From Ferroacidibacillus organovorans (GTDB lineage: Bacteria; Bacillota; Bacilli; Alicyclobacillales; SLC66), in the NCBI RefSeq assembly GCF_001642725.1, contig NZ_LSUQ01000003.1, forward strand, positions 1 to 64,000: a stretch of DNA of 64,000 nucleotides. The letters are read 5' to 3'. The notes beneath the pieces are model-generated. The model saw only the letters and a program-made list of their open reading frames with translations, was not told the DNA's origin and made no database searches. Positions 4,687 through 62,815 of the stretch are shown here, piece by piece. Position 1 is the stretch's first letter, and each line of letters starts with the position of its first letter. The translations under genes were made by a program, and so were the position numbers.

Positions 4687-4744
4687 AAAGAGCCCACAGC
4701 GACGTGGGGGGACTGGTCTGACCCCATGGCGCTGTGGGCTCTTT
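4687..4744. terminator. Bidirectional terminator-like hairpin
   Basis: AAAGAGCCCACAGCG / CGCTGTGGGCTCTTT between convergent genes. Confidence 0.75.
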
Positions 4745-4761
4745 GTATCGGTTGATTGCCC

Positions 4762-4974
4762 TTATTGAGCAATATGACCTAAGTGCATTTTTACAACTGC
4801 TATGCTGTTGGCATTTAGGATGTATTGGGCATCAGGTGCACTAAACTTGATGATGTTCTTTTGAATGTCGAATTGTACATTATCCCCTCCGTGAATCTCA
4901 AAGGTAGACCCACCAACAGTTATGATCAATTCTCCCCAACGTTTTAGTTCTTCTTGAAGAAAAGATACATCCAT
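4762..4974 (-). CDS. Small hypothetical protein (70 aa)
   Basis: RBS GGAGG upstream; protein-like composition. Confidence 0.7.
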   Translation of the reverse strand: MDVSFLQEELKRWGELIITVGGSTFEIHGGDNVQFDIQKNIIKFSAPDAQYILNANSIAVVKMHLGHIAQ

Positions 4975-39782: not shown

Positions 39783-39857
39783 ATCATTTATCGTGTTTGG
39801 CTAGAAAATGCAGGAATTTTGTCGAGCTTTATCGAAACTAATTTTGTGTATAAAAAG

Positions 39858-39936
39858 AATCGTCGGCAAAACTGTGGAAACGCAGTGGCGCAAAGCTATA
39901 GGGGCTTCGGCAAATTGCCATGCTAGCCAGTTGCAA
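39858..39936 (+). ncRNA. c-di-GMP-I (GEMM) riboswitch
   Basis: GGCAAAACTGT-GGAAAC-GCAGT-GGCGCAAAGCTATAGGGGCT...ATGCTAGCCAGTTGC; upstream of a GGDEF/EAL gene. Confidence 0.9.
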
Positions 39937-39946
39937 GTTACCGGAC

Positions 39947-39980
39947 ACCCCTCTATGGCTTTAGACGAGAGGGGTTTTTT
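39947..39980 (+). terminator. Riboswitch expression-platform terminator
   Basis: ACCCCTCT...AGAGGGGT plus T-tract before the RBS. Confidence 0.85.
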
Positions 39981-40003
39981 GCTTTGAATGGAGGGGATGC
40001 ATC

Positions 40004-41758
40004 GTGCTTGGAATCACTCTGAATGAACGCCTACAGATCGCATCTTCAAAAATGTTGACGATGTTGAGTCAAATGATTGATGTGAATACATTATTTGTGG
40101 CAATCCATGATGAACAGACGAATGAGATTATCAAGGTGTACAACCGGACTGAGGCATTGATGCAAGAAGGGGCGATGCCTTTTCGCGAGAGTTATTGTCA
40201 TCATGTCTGCAAGTCGACAGCAGATGTACTCATCATCCCCGACACAACGCTCGATGAGCGGACAGCCACAATGACGATCACATCCAAGCTCGGTGCGACA
40301 TCGTTTATCGGTGTGCCGATCGTTTTGAAACACGGGTGGAAGGTTGGCACAATTTGTGGCATGGATCGAACCGATCATGCATTTAGCGAGAAGGAGATTG
40401 AGGCGCTGCACGTTGCCGCTGTGTTCGTCGGTTACGTGATTGAATTAGAGCGAATGGCCTATGTGGATGATGTGACGGGGGTGTTTACTAGGAAGTTTTT
40501 GCAGGAATCCTTTCAGGGGCTCGCCAATCAGCACTCGGTGGTCTGCATGTTTGTGCTGGACATTGACCATTTTAAGATGATTAACGATCGCCAGGGACAC
40601 GAGTTTGGAGACAAGGTACTTCGTGTGATCGCAAAGCGCATTCACGACGCTCTGTACTCTACAGGAATCTTGTTTCGCTTAGGTGGCGACGAGTTTGCGC
40701 TGATGTCTTCTGATCCCACAAACCGCAAAGAGGCGTTGACGCTTGCGCAACAGGTGCTTGATCTCTTTTCTTCTCCGTTTGCGGTGGACGGAATGAGCCT
40801 CTTTGTCACGGCGAGCATCGGGGTTTCCTGGTATCCAGAATGTGGTGTTCAATTGCAGGAGCTTCTTCGCTATGCAGATATGGCGATGTACAGCGCAAAG
40901 CATGCCGGGGGCAATTGCATCAAGTGTTATGATCCGCAGCAGGAAGCTGCGATGAGGGAACGGCTTGACTTGGAGGAACGGTTGCGTTATGCGTTGGAAC
41001 ATGAGGAATTAGAAATTCACTATCAGCCCAAAATTTTAGTAAAGGATGGTTCAATTCAGTCCATCGAAGCGCTTACACGCTGGCGAGACGCATCGGGTGC
41101 ATGGATCTCACCTGAACGATTCATTTCGATTGCCGAAGAGAGTGCGTTGATTGTTATGCTAGGGCGATGGGTGCTGCTTAAAGCGTGTCGACAGTTTGTA
41201 ACATGGGAAGAAAAAGGGAAAGCCCCGGCGCTTTTGTCTGTCAACGTATCCCCGAAGCAATTTCAACTCGGGAACATGGTGCAAACGATTCGAGAAGTGA
41301 TTCAGGAAACGGGAATGGACCCGCAGTGCTTGGCGATTGAAATCACAGAGGGTCTTTTGATGCACAATTCCATGGAAATCGCGGAAGAGCTTCGGGTCAT
41401 TCGCTCTCTCGGTGTAAAGATCGCAATTGATGATTTTGGAAAAGGGTTTTCTTCGCTTTCATATCTTCACTTATTTCAACCCACCCACCTAAAAATCGAT
41501 AAATCATTTATTGATCATATGTTGCACGATCCAGGTCAAATGTCGATCGTATCTGCGGTGATTCATCTCGCGCATAATCTCAATATGTCAGTCATTGCGG
41601 AGGGTGTTGAGAATATGGAGCAGTTCAATCGCCTAAAAGCAGAAGGGTGTGACTATGTGCAGGGATATCTCTTTGCAAAACCCCTTCCCGCAGAGGAAAT
41701 TGAACGTTTTGCCAGCAGCTATTTAAAACATGGTGACAAGCGATTTAGGGTGGGGTGA
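40004..41758 (+). CDS. GAF-GGDEF-EAL c-di-GMP turnover protein
   Basis: N-terminal GAF; intact GGDEF; EAL and DDFGKGFSSL. Confidence 0.93.
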   Translation: MLGITLNERLQIASSKMLTMLSQMIDVNTLFVAIHDEQTNEIIKVYNRTEALMQEGAMPFRESYCHHVCKSTADVLIIPDTTLDERTATMTITSKLGATSFIGVPIVLKHGWKVGTICGMDRTDHAFSEKEIEALHVAAVFVGYVIELERMAYVDDVTGVFTRKFLQESFQGLANQHSVVCMFVLDIDHFKMINDRQGHEFGDKVLRVIAKRIHDALYSTGILFRLGGDEFALMSSDPTNRKEALTLAQQVLDLFSSPFAVDGMSLFVTASIGVSWYPECGVQLQELLRYADMAMYSAKHAGGNCIKCYDPQQEAAMRERLDLEERLRYALEHEELEIHYQPKILVKDGSIQSIEALTRWRDASGAWISPERFISIAEESALIVMLGRWVLLKACRQFVTWEEKGKAPALLSVNVSPKQFQLGNMVQTIREVIQETGMDPQCLAIEITEGLLMHNSMEIAEELRVIRSLGVKIAIDDFGKGFSSLSYLHLFQPTHLKIDKSFIDHMLHDPGQMSIVSAVIHLAHNLNMSVIAEGVENMEQFNRLKAEGCDYVQGYLFAKPLPAEEIERFASSYLKHGDKRFRVG

Positions 41759-44976: not shown

Positions 44977-45876
44977 TTACAAACCGATGGGGTTGTTGCG
45001 CGTCTGCACCCAATTCGTTCCGAAGTTGAAGTAGACAGATTTCCCCTGCATCGAGTTTGGGTCAATTCCTGAACCTGTAGGTGGTCTTAGGTCGAAACCA
45101 ACTGTGAAGGCAAGTAACGTTGATTGGCCTGGGTGAATTACATCATTGAACGTATTGACATTGTACGGTGACTGATTGACAAAATTTGAGGTTTGATCAT
45201 TGAACATTTGCGTTACAGCGACCGAATCAGTACTCACCGTCTGCCCATTCGATACCGCAGTAAGATTGTTGATGCTGTGAAGTAGACCGTTGTTCACTGC
45301 GGTCAAAAGTTGCTGCCCTGTGTAGCCCATTCCTCCGTACATTTGATAGAAATGGTTCACCGCATCAAGGCATTCTTCGATTTGGGTGGATGTTTCTTGA
45401 TTGGACCATTGGTCGTCGTTTCCGGTCGCTGTAGAAACAGGAACGAGCTCCCATACGGTCACGTTGGATTGATTGGAGAAAGTAGCATCGTTTTGAAGAT
45501 TAACTTGATTTGCCGAAGGATTTGAAGCGGTTAATCCATTGGCATCTACGGGTGTGGCTGCAATGGAGGATAGTCTTGCGGTCAATGTTCCTGTGTTTTC
45601 AAGAAACAGGCCGCGTGTGTGTTTATCGCCAGGAGCCCACAGCCCTGTGGGAACAACCCCCGCCTGAGGCGACGTAGTACTTGTGTAGAACATGGGCCCA
45701 GTTTGCGGAATGTCATCGCGCTCAGGGGTGACATTCAATGTTCCGGCTGTGAACGTGTTGGTTGTATTTTGTGAACTGCTTGTGAAGAGTGCGAACGTTC
45801 CGCCTCCGACAAGCGTACTGAGCGTAAGAATCCCTGCTACAGATAGAAGCGGTATCTTCGTCGAGAGTTTCAACAT
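44977..45876 (-). CDS. TasA/CalY family biofilm matrix protein (paralog 2)
   Basis: SipW-type signal GGTFALFTS, NTFTAGTL, WAPGD, NTGTL, NSMQG. Confidence 0.85.
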   Translation of the reverse strand: MLKLSTKIPLLSVAGILTLSTLVGGGTFALFTSSSQNTTNTFTAGTLNVTPERDDIPQTGPMFYTSTTSPQAGVVPTGLWAPGDKHTRGLFLENTGTLTARLSSIAATPVDANGLTASNPSANQVNLQNDATFSNQSNVTVWELVPVSTATGNDDQWSNQETSTQIEECLDAVNHFYQMYGGMGYTGQQLLTAVNNGLLHSINNLTAVSNGQTVSTDSVAVTQMFNDQTSNFVNQSPYNVNTFNDVIHPGQSTLLAFTVGFDLRPPTGSGIDPNSMQGKSVYFNFGTNWVQTRNNPIGL

Positions 45877-46701: not shown

Positions 46702-47304
46702 TCACACTTCGGATTTAGTGGGGGCTACTTCTTTTGCCCGCAGCTCTTTCCGAAGCGAACGCGTGAGACTGACCATTTGAGAGATGATCAGGAGTGCCCC
46801 TGGAATGATCAGTGTGAGCGCCATTCCAAGCTTTGTTTTTACAAATTCGAGGTAGTAACCGACATAGGGAACGGTAAAGTTGTCATACTGCGCAACCACG
46901 TTTTGGGATGGAACAAGGAAGAAATCGGCGACTTTGTTTGCGTCGCCTTTCGTGTGAAACAAGAGCTGGTTACCGCGATGAATCACCTGAATGATGCGGT
47001 GCGTAATCAGCATATTTTGGGTGTATGGTGCTTTGAATGTAATCATTTCGCCGACTTTTAACGTGGCTGGGTTTATGTGTGGCGTGTCAAATATGACGGA
47101 ACCGACTTGAAATGTAGGCACCATTGAGCCGGAGAGGACGACGTACATCTCGTGTCCAAAAATCGTCGGCGGTCCACCAGCGATGCGACTGGAAACACCT
47201 AAGTAGAGTATCAGCGCAAAAAATGCGAGAAGGAGATAGGTGACCACTCTGCCTGCCCATTTCAGTGTTGCTTTCATTCGCTTGATCGCCTTCCTCTTCA
47301 TCAT
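46702..47304 (-). CDS. sipW: Signal peptidase I, SipW (ER-type)
   Basis: VLSGSMVP, ITHRI, TKGDAN. Confidence 0.92.
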   Translation of the reverse strand: MMKRKAIKRMKATLKWAGRVVTYLLLAFFALILYLGVSSRIAGGPPTIFGHEMYVVLSGSMVPTFQVGSVIFDTPHINPATLKVGEMITFKAPYTQNMLITHRIIQVIHRGNQLLFHTKGDANKVADFFLVPSQNVVAQYDNFTVPYVGYYLEFVKTKLGMALTLIIPGALLIISQMVSLTRSLRKELRAKEVAPTKSEV

Positions 47305-48057
47305 CTAGTTGGAACTCGGTTTGTTGTATACATCGCTCACGACACTCGCAGGTGCTTGTGGCGCGTCGCTGCCTGCGTGATTCGTAGTGGCTTTTGCATC
47401 AGGTTGATCGGATTTTTTGTCATGTTTCACAAACGATGCGACAACACTTGTGCATGTCTGCATGTCATCTTGCATACGACTGAGATAGGAGGTGGCCGTG
47501 GACAAGGCGGTTTGTCCCCACGAAGCAACGCGTGCGAAAGATTCGATCACTGGTTGCGTATCTTTTTGTGCAATGGCGTTTTGATAATTCGTCTCATCTG
47601 TCGCCGCAGCTTGCGAAATGATCTCGAATGTGGCGTTTGCGTTTTGGATGAGTGACGCTTCCTGTGAAACCATCCCGTTAAGATGCGAGAGAATCTTTTC
47701 TTGATCCGTTTTCTTTTTCTCGTCCTCTTTATCTGAACGAATCCCTGCCCGATGGCTGATCCGCTGTGTGAGCGAGTCAGACTGCTGTGCATCGCCTGCC
47801 AGTTGCCCGACCAATTGCGCATACCACGACGGAAAGTGATCGGCAGATTGGAAGACGGCTGTCATTTGCTTTGACGATGTGAGCAGCGCCTCGGTGTTTC
47901 TCACAAACAGGTCTGAGCTTATCGCCGAAGCGGGTGTGAGCATCGCCGCCAGAACGAGAAGTGTGCGATACGGTTTTTTTTGACGGTTCACACGCATGGC
48001 ACGACTCCGTTCTTTTCGCGATAAAAAGTGGTTTTGCGAATTTGTCACATCACTCAA
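47305..48057 (-). CDS. Secreted accessory protein in the TapA position
   Basis: First gene of the sipW-tasA operon; basic N-terminus, hydrophobic segment, TEALLTS SipW-like cleavage motif. Confidence 0.65.
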   Translation of the reverse strand: MSDVTNSQNHFLSRKERSRAMRVNRQKKPYRTLLVLAAMLTPASAISSDLFVRNTEALLTSSKQMTAVFQSADHFPSWYAQLVGQLAGDAQQSDSLTQRISHRAGIRSDKEDEKKKTDQEKILSHLNGMVSQEASLIQNANATFEIISQAAATDETNYQNAIAQKDTQPVIESFARVASWGQTALSTATSYLSRMQDDMQTCTSVVASFVKHDKKSDQPDAKATTNHAGSDAPQAPASVVSDVYNKPSSN

Positions 48058-48078
48058 GACTGTATCGCCTCGCCGGTT

Positions 48079-48134
48079 GTTCTTTAAAACGAACGTTTAT
48101 GTGTTCATTATAACGAACGATCGTAGTGTGTCAA
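48079..48134 (-). promoter_or_regulatory. sigA promoter of the matrix operon with two SinR-type boxes
   Basis: Minus-strand TTGACA (48134-48129) and TATAAT (48112-48107); GTTCTTTAAAACGAAC 48079-48094 and GTTCATTATAACGAAC 48103-48118. Confidence 0.8.
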
Positions 48135-48314
48135 GAGATTGATATAAAGATTTTCCACGATATTTTCATCTTCATTCATTAGTGACGAAACTGTGCGGAT
48201 ATAATTTCGACGGAGAACGACATATGATCATAAGAAGAAAGTTTGGCGCATAGAATGATCGTCGACGCCGTCGATTGCTCACGAAAAACGTCGGAATTGC
48301 GTGGAAATATTCCC

Positions 48315-48343
48315 TTGTCGGCATAGGAGATAGCGTTTACGAT
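48315..48343 (+). promoter_or_regulatory. Candidate sigA promoter for the riboswitch-sinI-sinR transcript
   Basis: TTGTCG-17-TACGAT. Confidence 0.55.
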
Positions 48344-48359
48344 ATACATAGCACGAACC

Positions 48360-48446
48360 CGAAATCGCAAACCCGTTTGAAATGCGGGGACGCAAAGTCT
48401 CAGTTCTAAGGCTGACCTCAAATCGGCTATGAAGGCTGGACCGCAG
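48360..48446 (+). ncRNA. c-di-GMP-I (GEMM) riboswitch upstream of sinI
   Basis: CGCAAACCCGT-TTGAAA-TGCGGGGACGCAAAG...CTAA...ATG..GGCTGGACCGC matches the GEMM layout. Confidence 0.8.
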
Positions 48447-48483
48447 AAGGTTCCTATCGATTCGGTGGGAGGCAAAGGTCTTC

Positions 48484-48669
48484 ATGTCAAATGCTGAGCT
48501 GATTCAGTCTGAAGGCGTTGATGTCGGGTGGATTTCTTTAATGAAGGAAGCGAAGACACTTGGACTGAGCCTTGAAGAGGTACGCATCTTTCTTTACAGT
48601 AAAAGAGATGTGGTGTATGATTCTTCTTTAAGAACAACAGATACAATCGATCTTAATCAAGAACGATAA
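48484..48669 (+). CDS. sinI: SinI-family anti-repressor
   Basis: WISLMKEAKTLGLSLEEVRIFL helical-hook motif; directly upstream of sinR. Confidence 0.8.
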   Translation: MSNAELIQSEGVDVGWISLMKEAKTLGLSLEEVRIFLYSKRDVVYDSSLRTTDTIDLNQER

Positions 48670-48738
48670 TCGTTCGCTGATGAGATATGTATAGGGGATT
48701 TGCGTTAGGGTTTTGCGATGAATGTAAGGAGGATCACC

Positions 48739-49068
48739 ATGATCGGAGAAAGGATTCGTTCGCTTCGCATAGAGAGGAATCTCTCGCTCTCCGAATTGGC
48801 CGAACGAGCGGATATCGCAAAGTCCTACTTGAGTGCAATCGAAAGAAATATTCAGCACAACCCTTCGATTCAAGTGATTGAGAAATTGGCAAACGTCTTT
48901 GAACTGCCGATTCAACAGTTATTGCCGGACGAGACGATCAACGCGTTTGGCGAACTCGATTCCGAATGGCTGCAATTGGCCAAAGAAGCGGCAGACTCAG
49001 GAATTAGCAAAGAAGAGTTCAGTCAGTTTCTGGAGTATCAAAAATGGCGGTTGCAGCAGCCGAAGTGA
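48739..49068 (+). CDS. sinR: SinR transcriptional repressor
   Basis: MIGERI...SLSELAERA...AKSYLSAIERN...NPSIQ; C-terminal LDSEW...GISKEEF; RBS AAGGAGG. Confidence 0.92.
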   Translation: MIGERIRSLRIERNLSLSELAERADIAKSYLSAIERNIQHNPSIQVIEKLANVFELPIQQLLPDETINAFGELDSEWLQLAKEAADSGISKEEFSQFLEYQKWRLQQPK

Positions 49069-49169
49069 ACGGTGCCGGCGAAGTGAATTAGGAAGGGAAA
49101 ATTTCATGACCATTCGATGATAATGCGCGAATGGTATTTTTTTGCGAAGAAAACGAGCTGCCCAGGGGA

Positions 49170-49961
49170 TTAGAGGGCAGATCGTTTTCCATTTCCCTTT
49201 TTAAGGGTCTGTTCGGTGTGAAGGGTTTCCTCGCGGTTTCTGCGACGGCGTTCGTTTCCTTTGAGCGTAATCCGGGATACGGCGATGCTAACTTCATACA
49301 GGATGATCATCGGCACGGCGACGCTGAGATGTGACACAATTTCTGGCGGACTGATGATCGATGCGACGACAATAATCATCATGTAGGCGTATTTTCGCAG
49401 TCCGTGCAACCGTGCGGGCGTCAAGATCCCAAGTTGCGTGAGAAACATGACAACAACTGGCATTTCAAAAATGAGACCGAATGGCAACAGGATGTTTACC
49501 ATAAAGGAAAAGTAATTCTGAGCGGTGATCATCACGACAAAGTTTTGGCTTGCGAGTGTCATGAGAAAGTGCAAAAGAATTGGAAAGACAATGCGATAGG
49601 AAAACAAGACGCCGATGACAAACATGATGAACACGAGCGGGATAAGCTGTAGAGCAATCTTGCGTTCATGGGATTCCAGGGCAGGCTTTAAAAAAAGCCA
49701 GAGTTGAAAGAGCAAGAAGGGCAGAGTTACGCCGAGAGCGCTGAATCCGGCGATCATAAAGTAAATGTGAATCACATCGCCTGGCCCCAAAATCGCCAGG
49801 CGAATCCCTCCAATCGGGAGTGTGAGGGTGTGGTAGATGCGTGTGACAAACGTCAGGGATGCGGCAAACGCAGTCAACAGTGCGATCAATGAGATTATGA
49901 GACGCTTGCGAAGTTCCCCCAGGTGTTCCTGCCAGCGTTTTACCTCAATCGCTGAATTCAT
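49170..49961 (-). CDS. tatC: Twin-arginine translocase TatC
   Basis: [33 protein letters not shown]. Confidence 0.93.
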
Positions 49962-50206
49962 GACACGTGGTCGACCGGCGTGGTTTTTTGAAGGAGGTCC
50001 AACCCCGCGACCGGTTTTACGTCATCGAGCGGAATAGGGTTGCTCGGCGTGGCAAGATCGCTTGTCAATTCTTTTGTCGCCGATTTGAATTCTTTGAGCG
50101 TTTTTCCGACCGCTTTGCCGAGTTCAGGAAGTTTTGATGGACCAAAGAAAATTAGCGCAAAAATACCGATCAAGAGAATTCCGGGTAAACCAATGTTTGA
50201 AAACAC
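49958..50206 (-). CDS. tatA: Twin-arginine translocase TatA
   Basis: [21 protein letters not shown]. Confidence 0.95.
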
Positions 50207-50284
50207 AGGACAACACTCCTTGGCTTGATTTTTTAGGTGAGACGGGGTGTGATCAGACGTATCACACCCCGCAACGGCGGTTTA

Positions 50285-51055
50285 TTATCCGTTTTGATTC
50301 TGGAACATCGTCAGTGTTTTTGTGGTGTTTGGATCCCACCCGCTGTTGCTCCCGACAGCCGCCTGCACCTGCGCTTTGCTTGGCATGGAAAGCGGGCCTG
50401 TTGTGCCACCTGCAAACTGGTTGGGGAGAACGAACGGCGCGAGCCCCTTGGCGATGGCAGCGACGGATGTGCCACCCGCTTCTTCAAGGTAGAAATCATT
50501 CGGGACATTCAATCCGGCGATCTGGTGACCCATCACGCGATGTTCGCACTCGACGCCGAGGATCTCGCCTGCGAGTTGTGCGAGCGCAGGTTGTTTGAGC
50601 GGGCCTCCGAATTGGTAAATCGCCGCAAGGTATGCTTTGATAAAGGTGACCTCGAGCGCCTGTAGGAGATTGAGATAGCTTTTGCTGTCCTTAAAGGTGT
50701 CAGCGGGAAAGTAGAAGGATGTATACGGGGACTTTGCGCCTGCCCCTTGCAACAATTCAACGTGATAGAACTCAGCGCCGAGTGCACCTTGAAGATACGG
50801 TTTGTTGCCGGCGTTTACGACGGACCCTATGGGAGAATGAAGTCCCGTATAGTAGAATGTAGTCGCGAGACGCTCTGCAGTGAGTGCCGCGCCGATGATG
50901 CTTGCGACAGTGTCTTCGCTCGTGGCGGCAAATGCGCTCGCATCGACGCCCGCGAGTCCGCCGAGTGCGACGGTGGCGCTGAGTAGTCCGACGTTTTTGA
51001 TAAACTGTCTGCGCGTGGTTCCTTGCTGATTTTGTTCCTGATTCAATTTGATCAC
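50285..51055 (-). CDS. Tat-exported ferritin-like domain protein
   Basis: TRRQFIK Tat motif with AFA cleavage site; E / ExxH / E / ExxH di-metal ligands. Confidence 0.85.
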   Translation of the reverse strand: MIKLNQEQNQQGTTRRQFIKNVGLLSATVALGGLAGVDASAFAATSEDTVASIIGAALTAERLATTFYYTGLHSPIGSVVNAGNKPYLQGALGAEFYHVELLQGAGAKSPYTSFYFPADTFKDSKSYLNLLQALEVTFIKAYLAAIYQFGGPLKQPALAQLAGEILGVECEHRVMGHQIAGLNVPNDFYLEEAGGTSVAAIAKGLAPFVLPNQFAGGTTGPLSMPSKAQVQAAVGSNSGWDPNTTKTLTMFQNQNG

Positions 51056-61618: not shown

Positions 61619-62815
61619 TCAGAGCTTCTCACGTTGTGACAAAGGCGAAATTAAAGGATGCGCCCGCCGAAATTTTTCTTCATACATTCTCGCATCTGCG
61701 AGCTGCAATGTCTCCTCAATTGAAGGGGTGTCAACGGGCGCGGTGGCCATGCCCATGCTGACCTCAAGGCGCAGGTTTTGGATCCCTCTGTCTTGACTTA
61801 CCTGTTTGAGTTTATCGCGAATGGAATCCATGACTTCTTCGCTCAGCGATTTAGGAGAATACGCGATAAATTCGTCGCCGCCATAGCGGAAGTGGCGTGC
61901 AGGGCTTGGCAAACTGGAGACGAGCGCAGCCGCGACGTCGCGCAATACTTCGTCGCCGGTGATATGGCCAAACTGGTCATTCACCAATTTGAAATGATCG
62001 ACATCGACGACGATCAGACTACCTGAAAAAGGTGTGCGCTCATGCGCTTGGAGCAGGGATTTCCAGGCGTGCCGATTCTCGATTCCGGTGAGGCCATCTG
62101 TCCATGCCGATTTTTGAAGCGATTTAACCTTGTTGTAGTCATTGATCGCACCAAAGATGCCCACTTGAATCGCACTTGTCAAAAAGACGGCGATCATGGG
62201 GAATTGTCGGGAGAGCAGTGCGCCCATGAAGACGAGTAGATAAGAGTTTAGATAGCCCCAATGCAGCTCCTTAACTGTGAGACGGAGTTGATCAAGAATG
62301 GAGCGCTCTTCACGTTTGGCGACGATCATGGCAGAGATGAAACGGTTGATGAGCAAATGCAGCATCAGTGTCGTCAAGATGGAGATGAAAAGCGCAGGGG
62401 ATGAGCCGCCCAGGCGGTTTTGAAGGTATGAATAGGCGCTCGCGCTAATGAAGAGGCCAAGCGCCACATGGGCAAACGTTTCCAAGTATTTTGTAAAGCG
62501 GCTGTGCGCCCGTGCAGTGATCCAAATCAATCCTGGCAAAGGGATTAACATGGCGAGTTCTCGCGGCAGCGTATAGATACCAAGCATCAACAGCGGAATG
62601 CCTGGTCGCCACGAGGCACCGCTTGGCATGCGAATCGACCAAGGCGCGAGCATTGTGCAGAGAACACTGATTTCGATCATGAGCAGCGCATTGTGGTACG
62701 TCAAATGATGAAAGAGAAAAACAATGCTGAAGAGAAGGAGCACATTTCCAAACAGAGTAAGGAGAAAAAGGACGAGATGTAATGGCCGTTTGGCGAGCGT
62801 GATCATGATGGACAC
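61619..62815 (-). CDS. Membrane-bound diguanylate cyclase
   Basis: Multi-TM N-terminus; TDGLTG, DVDHFK.VND.FGH, RYGGDEF. Confidence 0.92.
   Translation of the reverse strand: MSIMITLAKRPLHLVLFLLTLFGNVLLLFSIVFLFHHLTYHNALLMIEISVLCTMLAPWSIRMPSGASWRPGIPLLMLGIYTLPRELAMLIPLPGLIWITARAHSRFTKYLETFAHVALGLFISASAYSYLQNRLGGSSPALFISILTTLMLHLLINRFISAMIVAKREERSILDQLRLTVKELHWGYLNSYLLVFMGALLSRQFPMIAVFLTSAIQVGIFGAINDYNKVKSLQKSAWTDGLTGIENRHAWKSLLQAHERTPFSGSLIVVDVDHFKLVNDQFGHITGDEVLRDVAAALVSSLPSPARHFRYGGDEFIAYSPKSLSEEVMDSIRDKLKQVSQDRGIQNLRLEVSMGMATAPVDTPSIEETLQLADARMYEEKFRRAHPLISPLSQREKL

Follow-up and report, generated by a model that had tools for sequence, protein, structure and literature searches.

How is sinI controlled in a bacterium whose sinI leader appears to carry a sensor for a second messenger? 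In B. subtilis, sinI is driven by Spo0A. For the stretch of DNA analyzed here, the first 64,000 nucleotides of contig NZ_LSUQ01000003.1 of Ferroacidibacillus organovorans (hereafter the window), the initial annotation proposed that a c-di-GMP riboswitch tunes the translation of SinI, which titrates SinR and thereby releases the matrix genes. If the ribosome site of sinI carries such a sensor, c-di-GMP would have a direct route to the master switch of biofilm formation in spore-forming Bacilli.

A c-di-GMP-I aptamer precedes sinI and sinR

A covariance search with Rfam model RF01051 places a c-di-GMP-I (GEMM-I) aptamer at 48356-48448 on the forward strand, with a score of 56.7 bits (E 2e-08) against a gathering cut-off of 35 bits and with a match that spans the whole model (positions 1-87); the aptamer previously drawn at 48360-48446 lies inside this match and thus passes the Rfam check. 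It ends 35 nt before the ATG of sinI (48484-48669, +), which encodes a 61-aa antirepressor-type protein consisting of a stand-alone SinI domain (PF08671, 38.9 bits versus a cut-off of 31.4) adjoining sinR, and which matches the SinR C-terminus at 47% over 30 aa. The NCBIfam equivalog for Bacillus-type SinI (NF046031) is not reached (26.9 versus a cut-off of 80), and by these scores the protein is SinI-type and not a close orthologue of B. subtilis SinI. The 109-aa repressor SinR (48739-49068, +) has an N-terminal HTH_3 domain, a C-terminal SinI domain, and a full-length match to the solved B. subtilis SinR (PDB 1b0n, E 3.6e-32), so that the order of sinI and then sinR 3' of the aptamer, as first annotated, is borne out by the Pfam domains and by the match to solved SinR. 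The riboswitch-sinI-sinR arrangement is therefore confirmed as an observation. Within sinI there is a candidate internal sinR promoter (48593-48621, +, 10/12), and just 3' of it lie one-mismatch SinR-type half sites (48623-48664), for which SinR autoregulation is a possible role. Converging on sinR are tatC, tatA, and a gene for a ferritin-like protein whose leader is of the twin-arginine type (49170-51055, -).

The pocket of the window aptamer contains C20 (48366), A47 (48394), and C92 (48444), the residue roles being those described for c-di-GMP-I aptamers in the available parts of PMC3764141 and PMC4744006, and the interhelical pair C44-G83 is kept (C48391/G48435). It departs from the consensus at four places: C48366 stands where G20 is expected, C90 creates an A49.C90 mismatch, A93 removes the G-C93 pair from a P1 helix that otherwise closes the junction, and a U.U pair lies under the GAAA loop. 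This aptamer is the lowest scoring of the eight c-di-GMP-I aptamers in the genome. Because PMC9049102 describes G20 as conserved less strictly than A47, and aptamers with C20 pass Rfam, the missing G20 dents the claim of affinity more than the claim of family membership.

A divergent matrix operon carries SinR-type operators

Upstream of the sinI leader, a sigma-A promoter matching the consensus at 12/12 positions (48107-48134, -) reads away from sinI, and it is accompanied by two inverted operators (48079-48094 and 48103-48118), recognized by a motif that we take to be the SinR operator and kept in the congeneric genome G001. The second box overlaps the -10 element. Only eight such paired boxes occur in the 3.03-Mb genome, two of them at this promoter, and pairs of this type are present in 8/17 order-level loci. 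The operon encodes a 230-aa protein (47305-47997, -), a SipW-type signal peptidase (46702-47304, -; above the cut-off of TIGR02228, and at 178.7 bits versus a cut-off of 190 for NF046067), and two TasA/CalY-like proteins matching PF12389 and TIGR04088 (45967-46581, -, with a SipW-type signal; 44977-45876, -), which fall short of the TasA equivalog cut-off (35 versus 450). The boxes, the promoter, and the sipW/tasA-type genes together uphold the earlier reading that sinI is divergent from a SinR-boxed matrix operon. The 230-aa protein has no Pfam match, has homologues in nine loci, and resembles DUF4047 clusters at 0.90 by language-model features, a resemblance that serves as a lead only. The portion of PMC13082335 available to us describes CapP, a DUF4047 protein of B. 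cereus, as restricted to the B. cereus group, and on this lead the 230-aa protein is possibly a distant CapP analogue.

The aptamer tracks sinI in many Bacilli

Conservation in relatives, which the initial annotation had named as a check, was assessed in three sets of genomes that are related and hence not independent, with spread counted per locus or per genome. Among 60 order-level relatives, 28 have SinI domains, and the Rfam scan of 29 of their loci, each about 3 kb long, finds the aptamer directly 5' of sinI on the same strand in 16, covering 10 genera and two families; several of the 13 aptamer-less loci have no sinI or are broken off by a contig end. In a named set made up of the best 80 of 583 SinR loci by SinR alignment, which is not a random sample, the aptamer ends 44-100 nt 5' of a SinI domain in 44 loci. 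Altogether these best 80 loci (494 kb) contain 46 c-di-GMP-I-clan matches in 45 loci, of which 45/46 are directly before sinI. What follows the lone exception (L047:2737-2841, -) is a sinI remnant that retains just the C-terminal half of the SinI domain, and here sinI seems to have been deleted beside its riboswitch. A second SinI-domain match is found in 71/80 loci, 27 of which are without the aptamer, and among these best 80 the aptamer was not found at the sinI genes of Paenibacillus, Brevibacillus, or Halalkalibacter. Of 20 genomes from a further family (f17), six have SinI domains, and the aptamer lies before the small ORF in all six.

The layout of the locus varies between co-linear, convergent (L043), and paralogous (L060, L115), and the aptamer stays with sinI in each, so that it tracks sinI and not the locus. 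Duplicated sinI paralogues occur with an aptamer on each copy (L115:2643-2734 and 4714-4807) or on one alone (L060:5078-5160). RF01051 is absent from all 14 control genomes, B. subtilis included, which agrees with the statement that B. subtilis sinI is without a riboswitch. The idea that degenerate aptamers are hidden at aptamer-less loci was set aside, as a sequence model gave a single match in 49 loci, namely the known L047, and none at the other 48. Among viral contigs, 25 pattern matches yielded no SinR relative. A group I intron match is present near sinR in the Bacillus songklensis locus (L045:177-673).

P1 may compete with an anti-Shine-Dalgarno hairpin

We compared 57 non-redundant copies of the sinI aptamer after dropping five duplicates and L047. 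The pocket is G20-A47-C92 in 52/57, with A20 in two, C20 in two (the window genome and G001), and U92 in one. The start codon follows C92 at a distance of 22-51 nt, too near for a terminator, so control is most likely translational, and a terminator scan of 47500-49500 of the window returned no terminator-like site. In the P1 register of the window, 8/8 pairs vary on both sides over the 17 order-level copies and 61.8% of cells are paired, as judged against shuffles that ignore relatedness; across the whole set, the 5' P1 strand fits its own 3' strand better than those of other copies in 53/57. Many copies form a hairpin that runs from C92 onward into the Shine-Dalgarno sequence (SD), and this hairpin beats linker shuffles in 23/57. 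A gain in SD access upon P1 formation, as expected of an ON switch, exceeds linker shuffles at p<=0.05 in 12/57 copies (about 3 expected), mostly of the Bacillaceae type and the window copy not among them, and lies above the shuffle mean in 33/57 (median 1.7 versus 1.3). An earlier count of 50/57 ON-type copies from constrained folds was biased by the constraints and was dropped in favor of the shuffles. The modeled ON direction thus has good support in a subgroup and is plausible for the remaining copies, and that a working ON switch operates in the family is likely. Eight matches that score best with the model RF03167 (c-di-GMP-I-GGC) have G20-A47-C92 and represent model overlap and not a variant.

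The sinI leader of the window

In the window copy, the P1 strands lie at 48355-48360 and 48446-48453 (+), the predicted fold pairing 48355-48359 with 48449-48453, and the 5' strand prefers its own partner over those of other copies (rank 0.05). The three bases 48451-48453 are common to P1 and to an anti-SD hairpin (48451-48471, +) in which 48451-48459 pairs with 48463-48471 and masks GGGAG of the SD GGGAGG (48467-48472, +), located 11 nt 5' of the ATG; a weaker alternative SD is found at 48474-48478. The hairpin that the initial annotation had placed over the ribosome-binding site at 48452-48470 is therefore present, though by itself it does not exceed chance expectation (48440-48500, z -0.8; linker shuffle p 0.11), and folding of the whole region is uninformative (z -0.57 and -0.44). 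The anti-SD register usual in the family is lost here (rank 0.58). P1 formation is predicted to lower the cost of opening the whole ribosome-binding site from 8.9-9.9 to 6.1-7.7 kcal/mol, and the SD core is not freed (4.9-5.1 kcal/mol in the free state versus 5.0-6.7 in the bound). The linker shuffle test gives -2.0 kcal/mol (p 0.98, against ON), in a setup that blocked C92 to +5 and thus missed the P1 strand of this copy. The switching direction of the window copy consequently leans toward ON by homology.

Taken together, these features suggest a model in which, in the absence of ligand, the stretch immediately 3' of the pocket would form the hairpin that hides the SD, and binding of c-di-GMP would stabilize P1, which takes the hairpin bases and loosens the ribosome site. 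The SinI so made would bind SinR, by extension from B. subtilis, and free the SinR-boxed promoter, allowing expression of the divergent capP-like/sipW/tasA-like operon. We give this full mechanism, a translational ON switch of class I on the sinI leader of the window that frees the matrix operon, a little better than an even chance.

Two alternatives bear directly on this copy. One is that the family works and the copy of this genus is weakened or vestigial, with sinI translation governed by a hairpin that persists in the free and the bound state. The combination of C20, C90, A93, and the U.U pair, the lowest score among the aptamers of the genome, the SD core that is not freed, and the loss of the aptamer in other family relatives (L019, L022, L040) fit such decay, but G001 has kept its copy with the same P1 and a compensated hairpin pair (U-G in the window, U-A in G001), P1 is specific to its own partner, A47, C92, and C44-G83 are intact, and C20 recurs naturally, with 20/20 hand-picked C20 loci passing Rfam. 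We regard a vestigial copy as unlikely. Similarly improbable is a c-di-GMP-binding aptamer that turns sinI off, or that works by way of mRNA stability or Rho and not through SD access. Once P1 has formed, the SD can pair downstream into a second hairpin with 48478-48483, and the local shuffle test leans negative, which would suit an OFF switch; the cost of opening the whole ribosome-binding site nonetheless drops by 2-4 kcal/mol with P1, and the relatives with a clear signal are of the ON type. High c-di-GMP favors the biofilm state, a rule that the ON direction fits and that counts against an OFF switch.

The C20 pocket and its ligand

The G20U variant of the Vc2 aptamer is quoted as binding 30,000-fold more weakly in the text of PMC4744006 available to us, and because wild-type Vc2 has a Kd of 0.011 nM (PMC4744006, PMC9049102), such a loss would still leave sub-micromolar binding. 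The literature searched yielded no affinity datum for G20C, for which the genus supplies a natural pocket. A C20 pattern scan returned 121 metagenome loci, and C20 is a natural state that recurs in many unrelated records (L119-L244), some in tandem with other aptamers and several in tandem arrays (L143, L154, L156, L167); 4/400 other Bacilli genomes also match the pattern. C20 as a sinI-specific class was rejected, as among 117 distinct pattern matches a SinI domain lies downstream only at that of the window. From these sequence features, the best reading of the window aptamer is a lower-affinity c-di-GMP sensor, and the C20/C90/A93 pocket of the genus probably has a reduced affinity for c-di-GMP, which would set a higher threshold.

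A different ligand specificity, in which the C20 pocket favors a dinucleotide other than c-di-GMP, for instance 3',3'-cGAMP, or needs a protonated C20 or A49 to accept c-di-GMP, appears quite unlikely. Position 20 sets ligand specificity within this class, and in the available part of PMC6140456 cGAMP switches can bind c-di-GMP when A20 is protonated; sequencing runs of the same study as our genome are labelled mine drainage. However, the known cGAMP-sensing variant (GEMM-Ib) has A20 and not C20, orthologous copies have G20 in 52/57, and the records of the C20 aptamers are not limited to acid habitats. All 10 GGDEF domains of the genome also keep the aspartate at what we take to be the guanine-site position, and no hybrid GGDEF synthase without this residue is found, which argues against cGAMP. 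A combined reading would have a c-di-GMP-to-SinI translational ON switch, ANDed with Spo0A, as the usual way into biofilm across the Bacilli and lost in B. subtilis, with a genus-specific pocket (C20, A49.C90) that needs protonation. We consider this very doubtful as a whole, and its pH gate would be an inference by analogy with PMC6140456, as far as that source was available; if true, sinI would report on both c-di-GMP and cytoplasmic pH in a genus of acid habitats.

Transcription of sinI and possible sources of the signal

The candidate sigma-A promoter of sinI (48315-48343, +) reads TTGTCG-17-TACGAT, with a predicted start near 48350. It matches at 8/12 positions and scores under the threshold of the promoter scanner, and the same site is present in G001. 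Sites of at least 8/12 lie 21-28 nt 5' of aptamer position 20 in 12/17 order-level copies, and across all 57 copies the enrichment is modest (33 observed versus 19.9 expected). The promoter proposed by the initial annotation hence gains from its conserved placement and loses from its score. That the aptamer lies off the sinI mRNA, as a separate small RNA or an antisense RNA, with sinI transcribed from a closer start, has a very slight chance, as the 8/12 promoter would allow it, as would PMC9943018, where an element of this kind is taken to act antisense to a SinR-like gene, but the gap from aptamer to ATG is short (35 nt), sense and distance to sinI stay constant with sinR co-linear, convergent, or far away, and the sinI 5'-UTR of B. 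methanolicus has been mapped (PMC4342826, in its available part).

The genome also encodes Spo0A. A perfect match to what is presumably the Spo0A box lies at 48183-48189 (+), 183 nt 5' of position 20, and no perfect box is found in G001. Within 450 nt, perfect boxes occur at 23/43 aptamer-bearing sinI genes versus 9/38 other small SinI ORFs, against a background of 0.31 per 450 nt and in a tally that misclassed two loci as SinR-like; 21/32 boxes sit 50-149 nt 5' of aptamer position 20. We rejected the idea that the riboswitch replaces Spo0A, as the boxes are commoner at aptamer-bearing sinI. By their sequence pattern, the Spo0A input was probably kept alongside the riboswitch, and Spo0A probably still acts on the sinI promoter in many species, which would make the input AND-like.

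As candidate sources of the signal, the initial annotation had pointed to a diguanylate cyclase and a riboswitch-preceded GGDEF-EAL gene in the same window, and both are present. The first is a membrane GGDEF protein encoded at 61619-62815. The second, a GAF-GGDEF-EAL gene (39855-41758 with its leader, +), follows an aptamer at 39855-39938 (RF01051, 61.5 bits) with G20-A47-C92. In this leader the aptamer is followed by a terminator-like hairpin and a T-run, and the modeled fold pairs P3 with the 5' arm of the terminator, hinting at a transcriptional OFF switch. A GAF-GGDEF-EAL paralogue with an aptamer of its own is found elsewhere in the genome (G000:C2:112625). A local diguanylate cyclase dedicated to the sinI switch is unsupported, as the genome has 10 GGDEF domains.

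Discussion

The claim that c-di-GMP tunes SinI translation, titrates SinR, and releases the matrix genes holds best in its wiring, which is strongly backed because it is conserved across dozens of genera with a short distance from aptamer to start codon, and which also has the mapped B. methanolicus 5'-UTR on its side; the ligand and direction of the window copy stand on homology. That this wiring represents a working, widespread c-di-GMP-to-SinI switch is moderately probable. Roughly half of the SinR loci that we looked at carry it, records of Peribacillus, Metabacillus, Heyndrickxia, Neobacillus, Virgibacillus, and Alicyclobacillus among them, which suggests that the B. subtilis model is the exception.

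The initial annotation knew of no description of this wiring, which does not hold. Table 4 of Irla 2015 (PMC4342826) lists "(c-di-GMP)-sinI" for BMMGA3_08510 of B. methanolicus MGA3, with an Rfam match in a mapped 5'-UTR longer than 100 nt that is labelled "control of biofilm formation", and this entry supports an aptamer on the sinI mRNA while ending any claim to a first report. The available text of PMC7793685 cites unpublished data that sinI is up at high c-di-GMP in B. thuringiensis, and in that text no riboswitch is marked at B. thuringiensis sinI. The literature searched, in which subscription papers are sparse, contained no functional study of the wiring and no statement of its spread, and supplements on GEMM gene context and regulon databases may already list SinI. 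The riboswitch class and the regulator pair are thus known, and the wiring has been listed once and otherwise appears functionally unstudied; new here are its breadth, a concrete ON model of P1 versus the anti-SD hairpin, the C20 pocket, and a re-reading of a published antisense case.

That case is an "antisense-acting" c-di-GMP-I riboswitch in Paenibacillus sp. FSL P4-0081, for which PMC9943018, in the part available, gives an 85-nt aptamer on the + strand 329 nt from the stop of the SinR-like gene P40081_02330 on the - strand. In genus g39, 5/5 genomes have an aptamer of 85-86 nt located 271-391 nt from a convergent sinR, and the gap holds, 32 nt past C92, a sinI of 50-51 aa together with an anti-SD hairpin. 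A convergent sinI-sinR pair with the aptamer before sinI, as in the f17 loci L245-L250, likewise fits the published case. By analogy with the geometry of the five g39 genomes, the Paenibacillus element is probably a sense switch for an unannotated sinI, which offers a simpler reading, and some of the 152 antisense c-di-GMP cases of PMC9943018 may hide small unannotated genes.

The closest comparator is the B. methanolicus entry, which has the same putative riboswitch in a sinI 5'-UTR and in the available text amounts to one sentence and one table row without test, mechanism, or spread, whereas the window copy belongs to a distant order-level lineage and has C20. With the c-di-GMP-I riboswitches Vc2, Vc1, and B. 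thuringiensis Bc1 and Bc2, the window aptamer shares the fold, A47, C92, C44-G83, the GNRA loop, and the receptor helix, but it has C at position 20, and its target is the antagonist of a master regulator and not a structural or chemotaxis gene. Bc1, in the account available, has terminators, whereas the window leader is a short translational platform. In common with the SinI/SinR systems of B. subtilis and B. cereus, as far as PMC13082335 was available, there are a SinI-domain antirepressor, a full-length SinR, and inverted SinR boxes at a sipW/tasA-type promoter, with the differences from B. subtilis that sinI here is equipped with an RNA sensor and that the first matrix gene is DUF4047/CapP-like by its features and not TapA.
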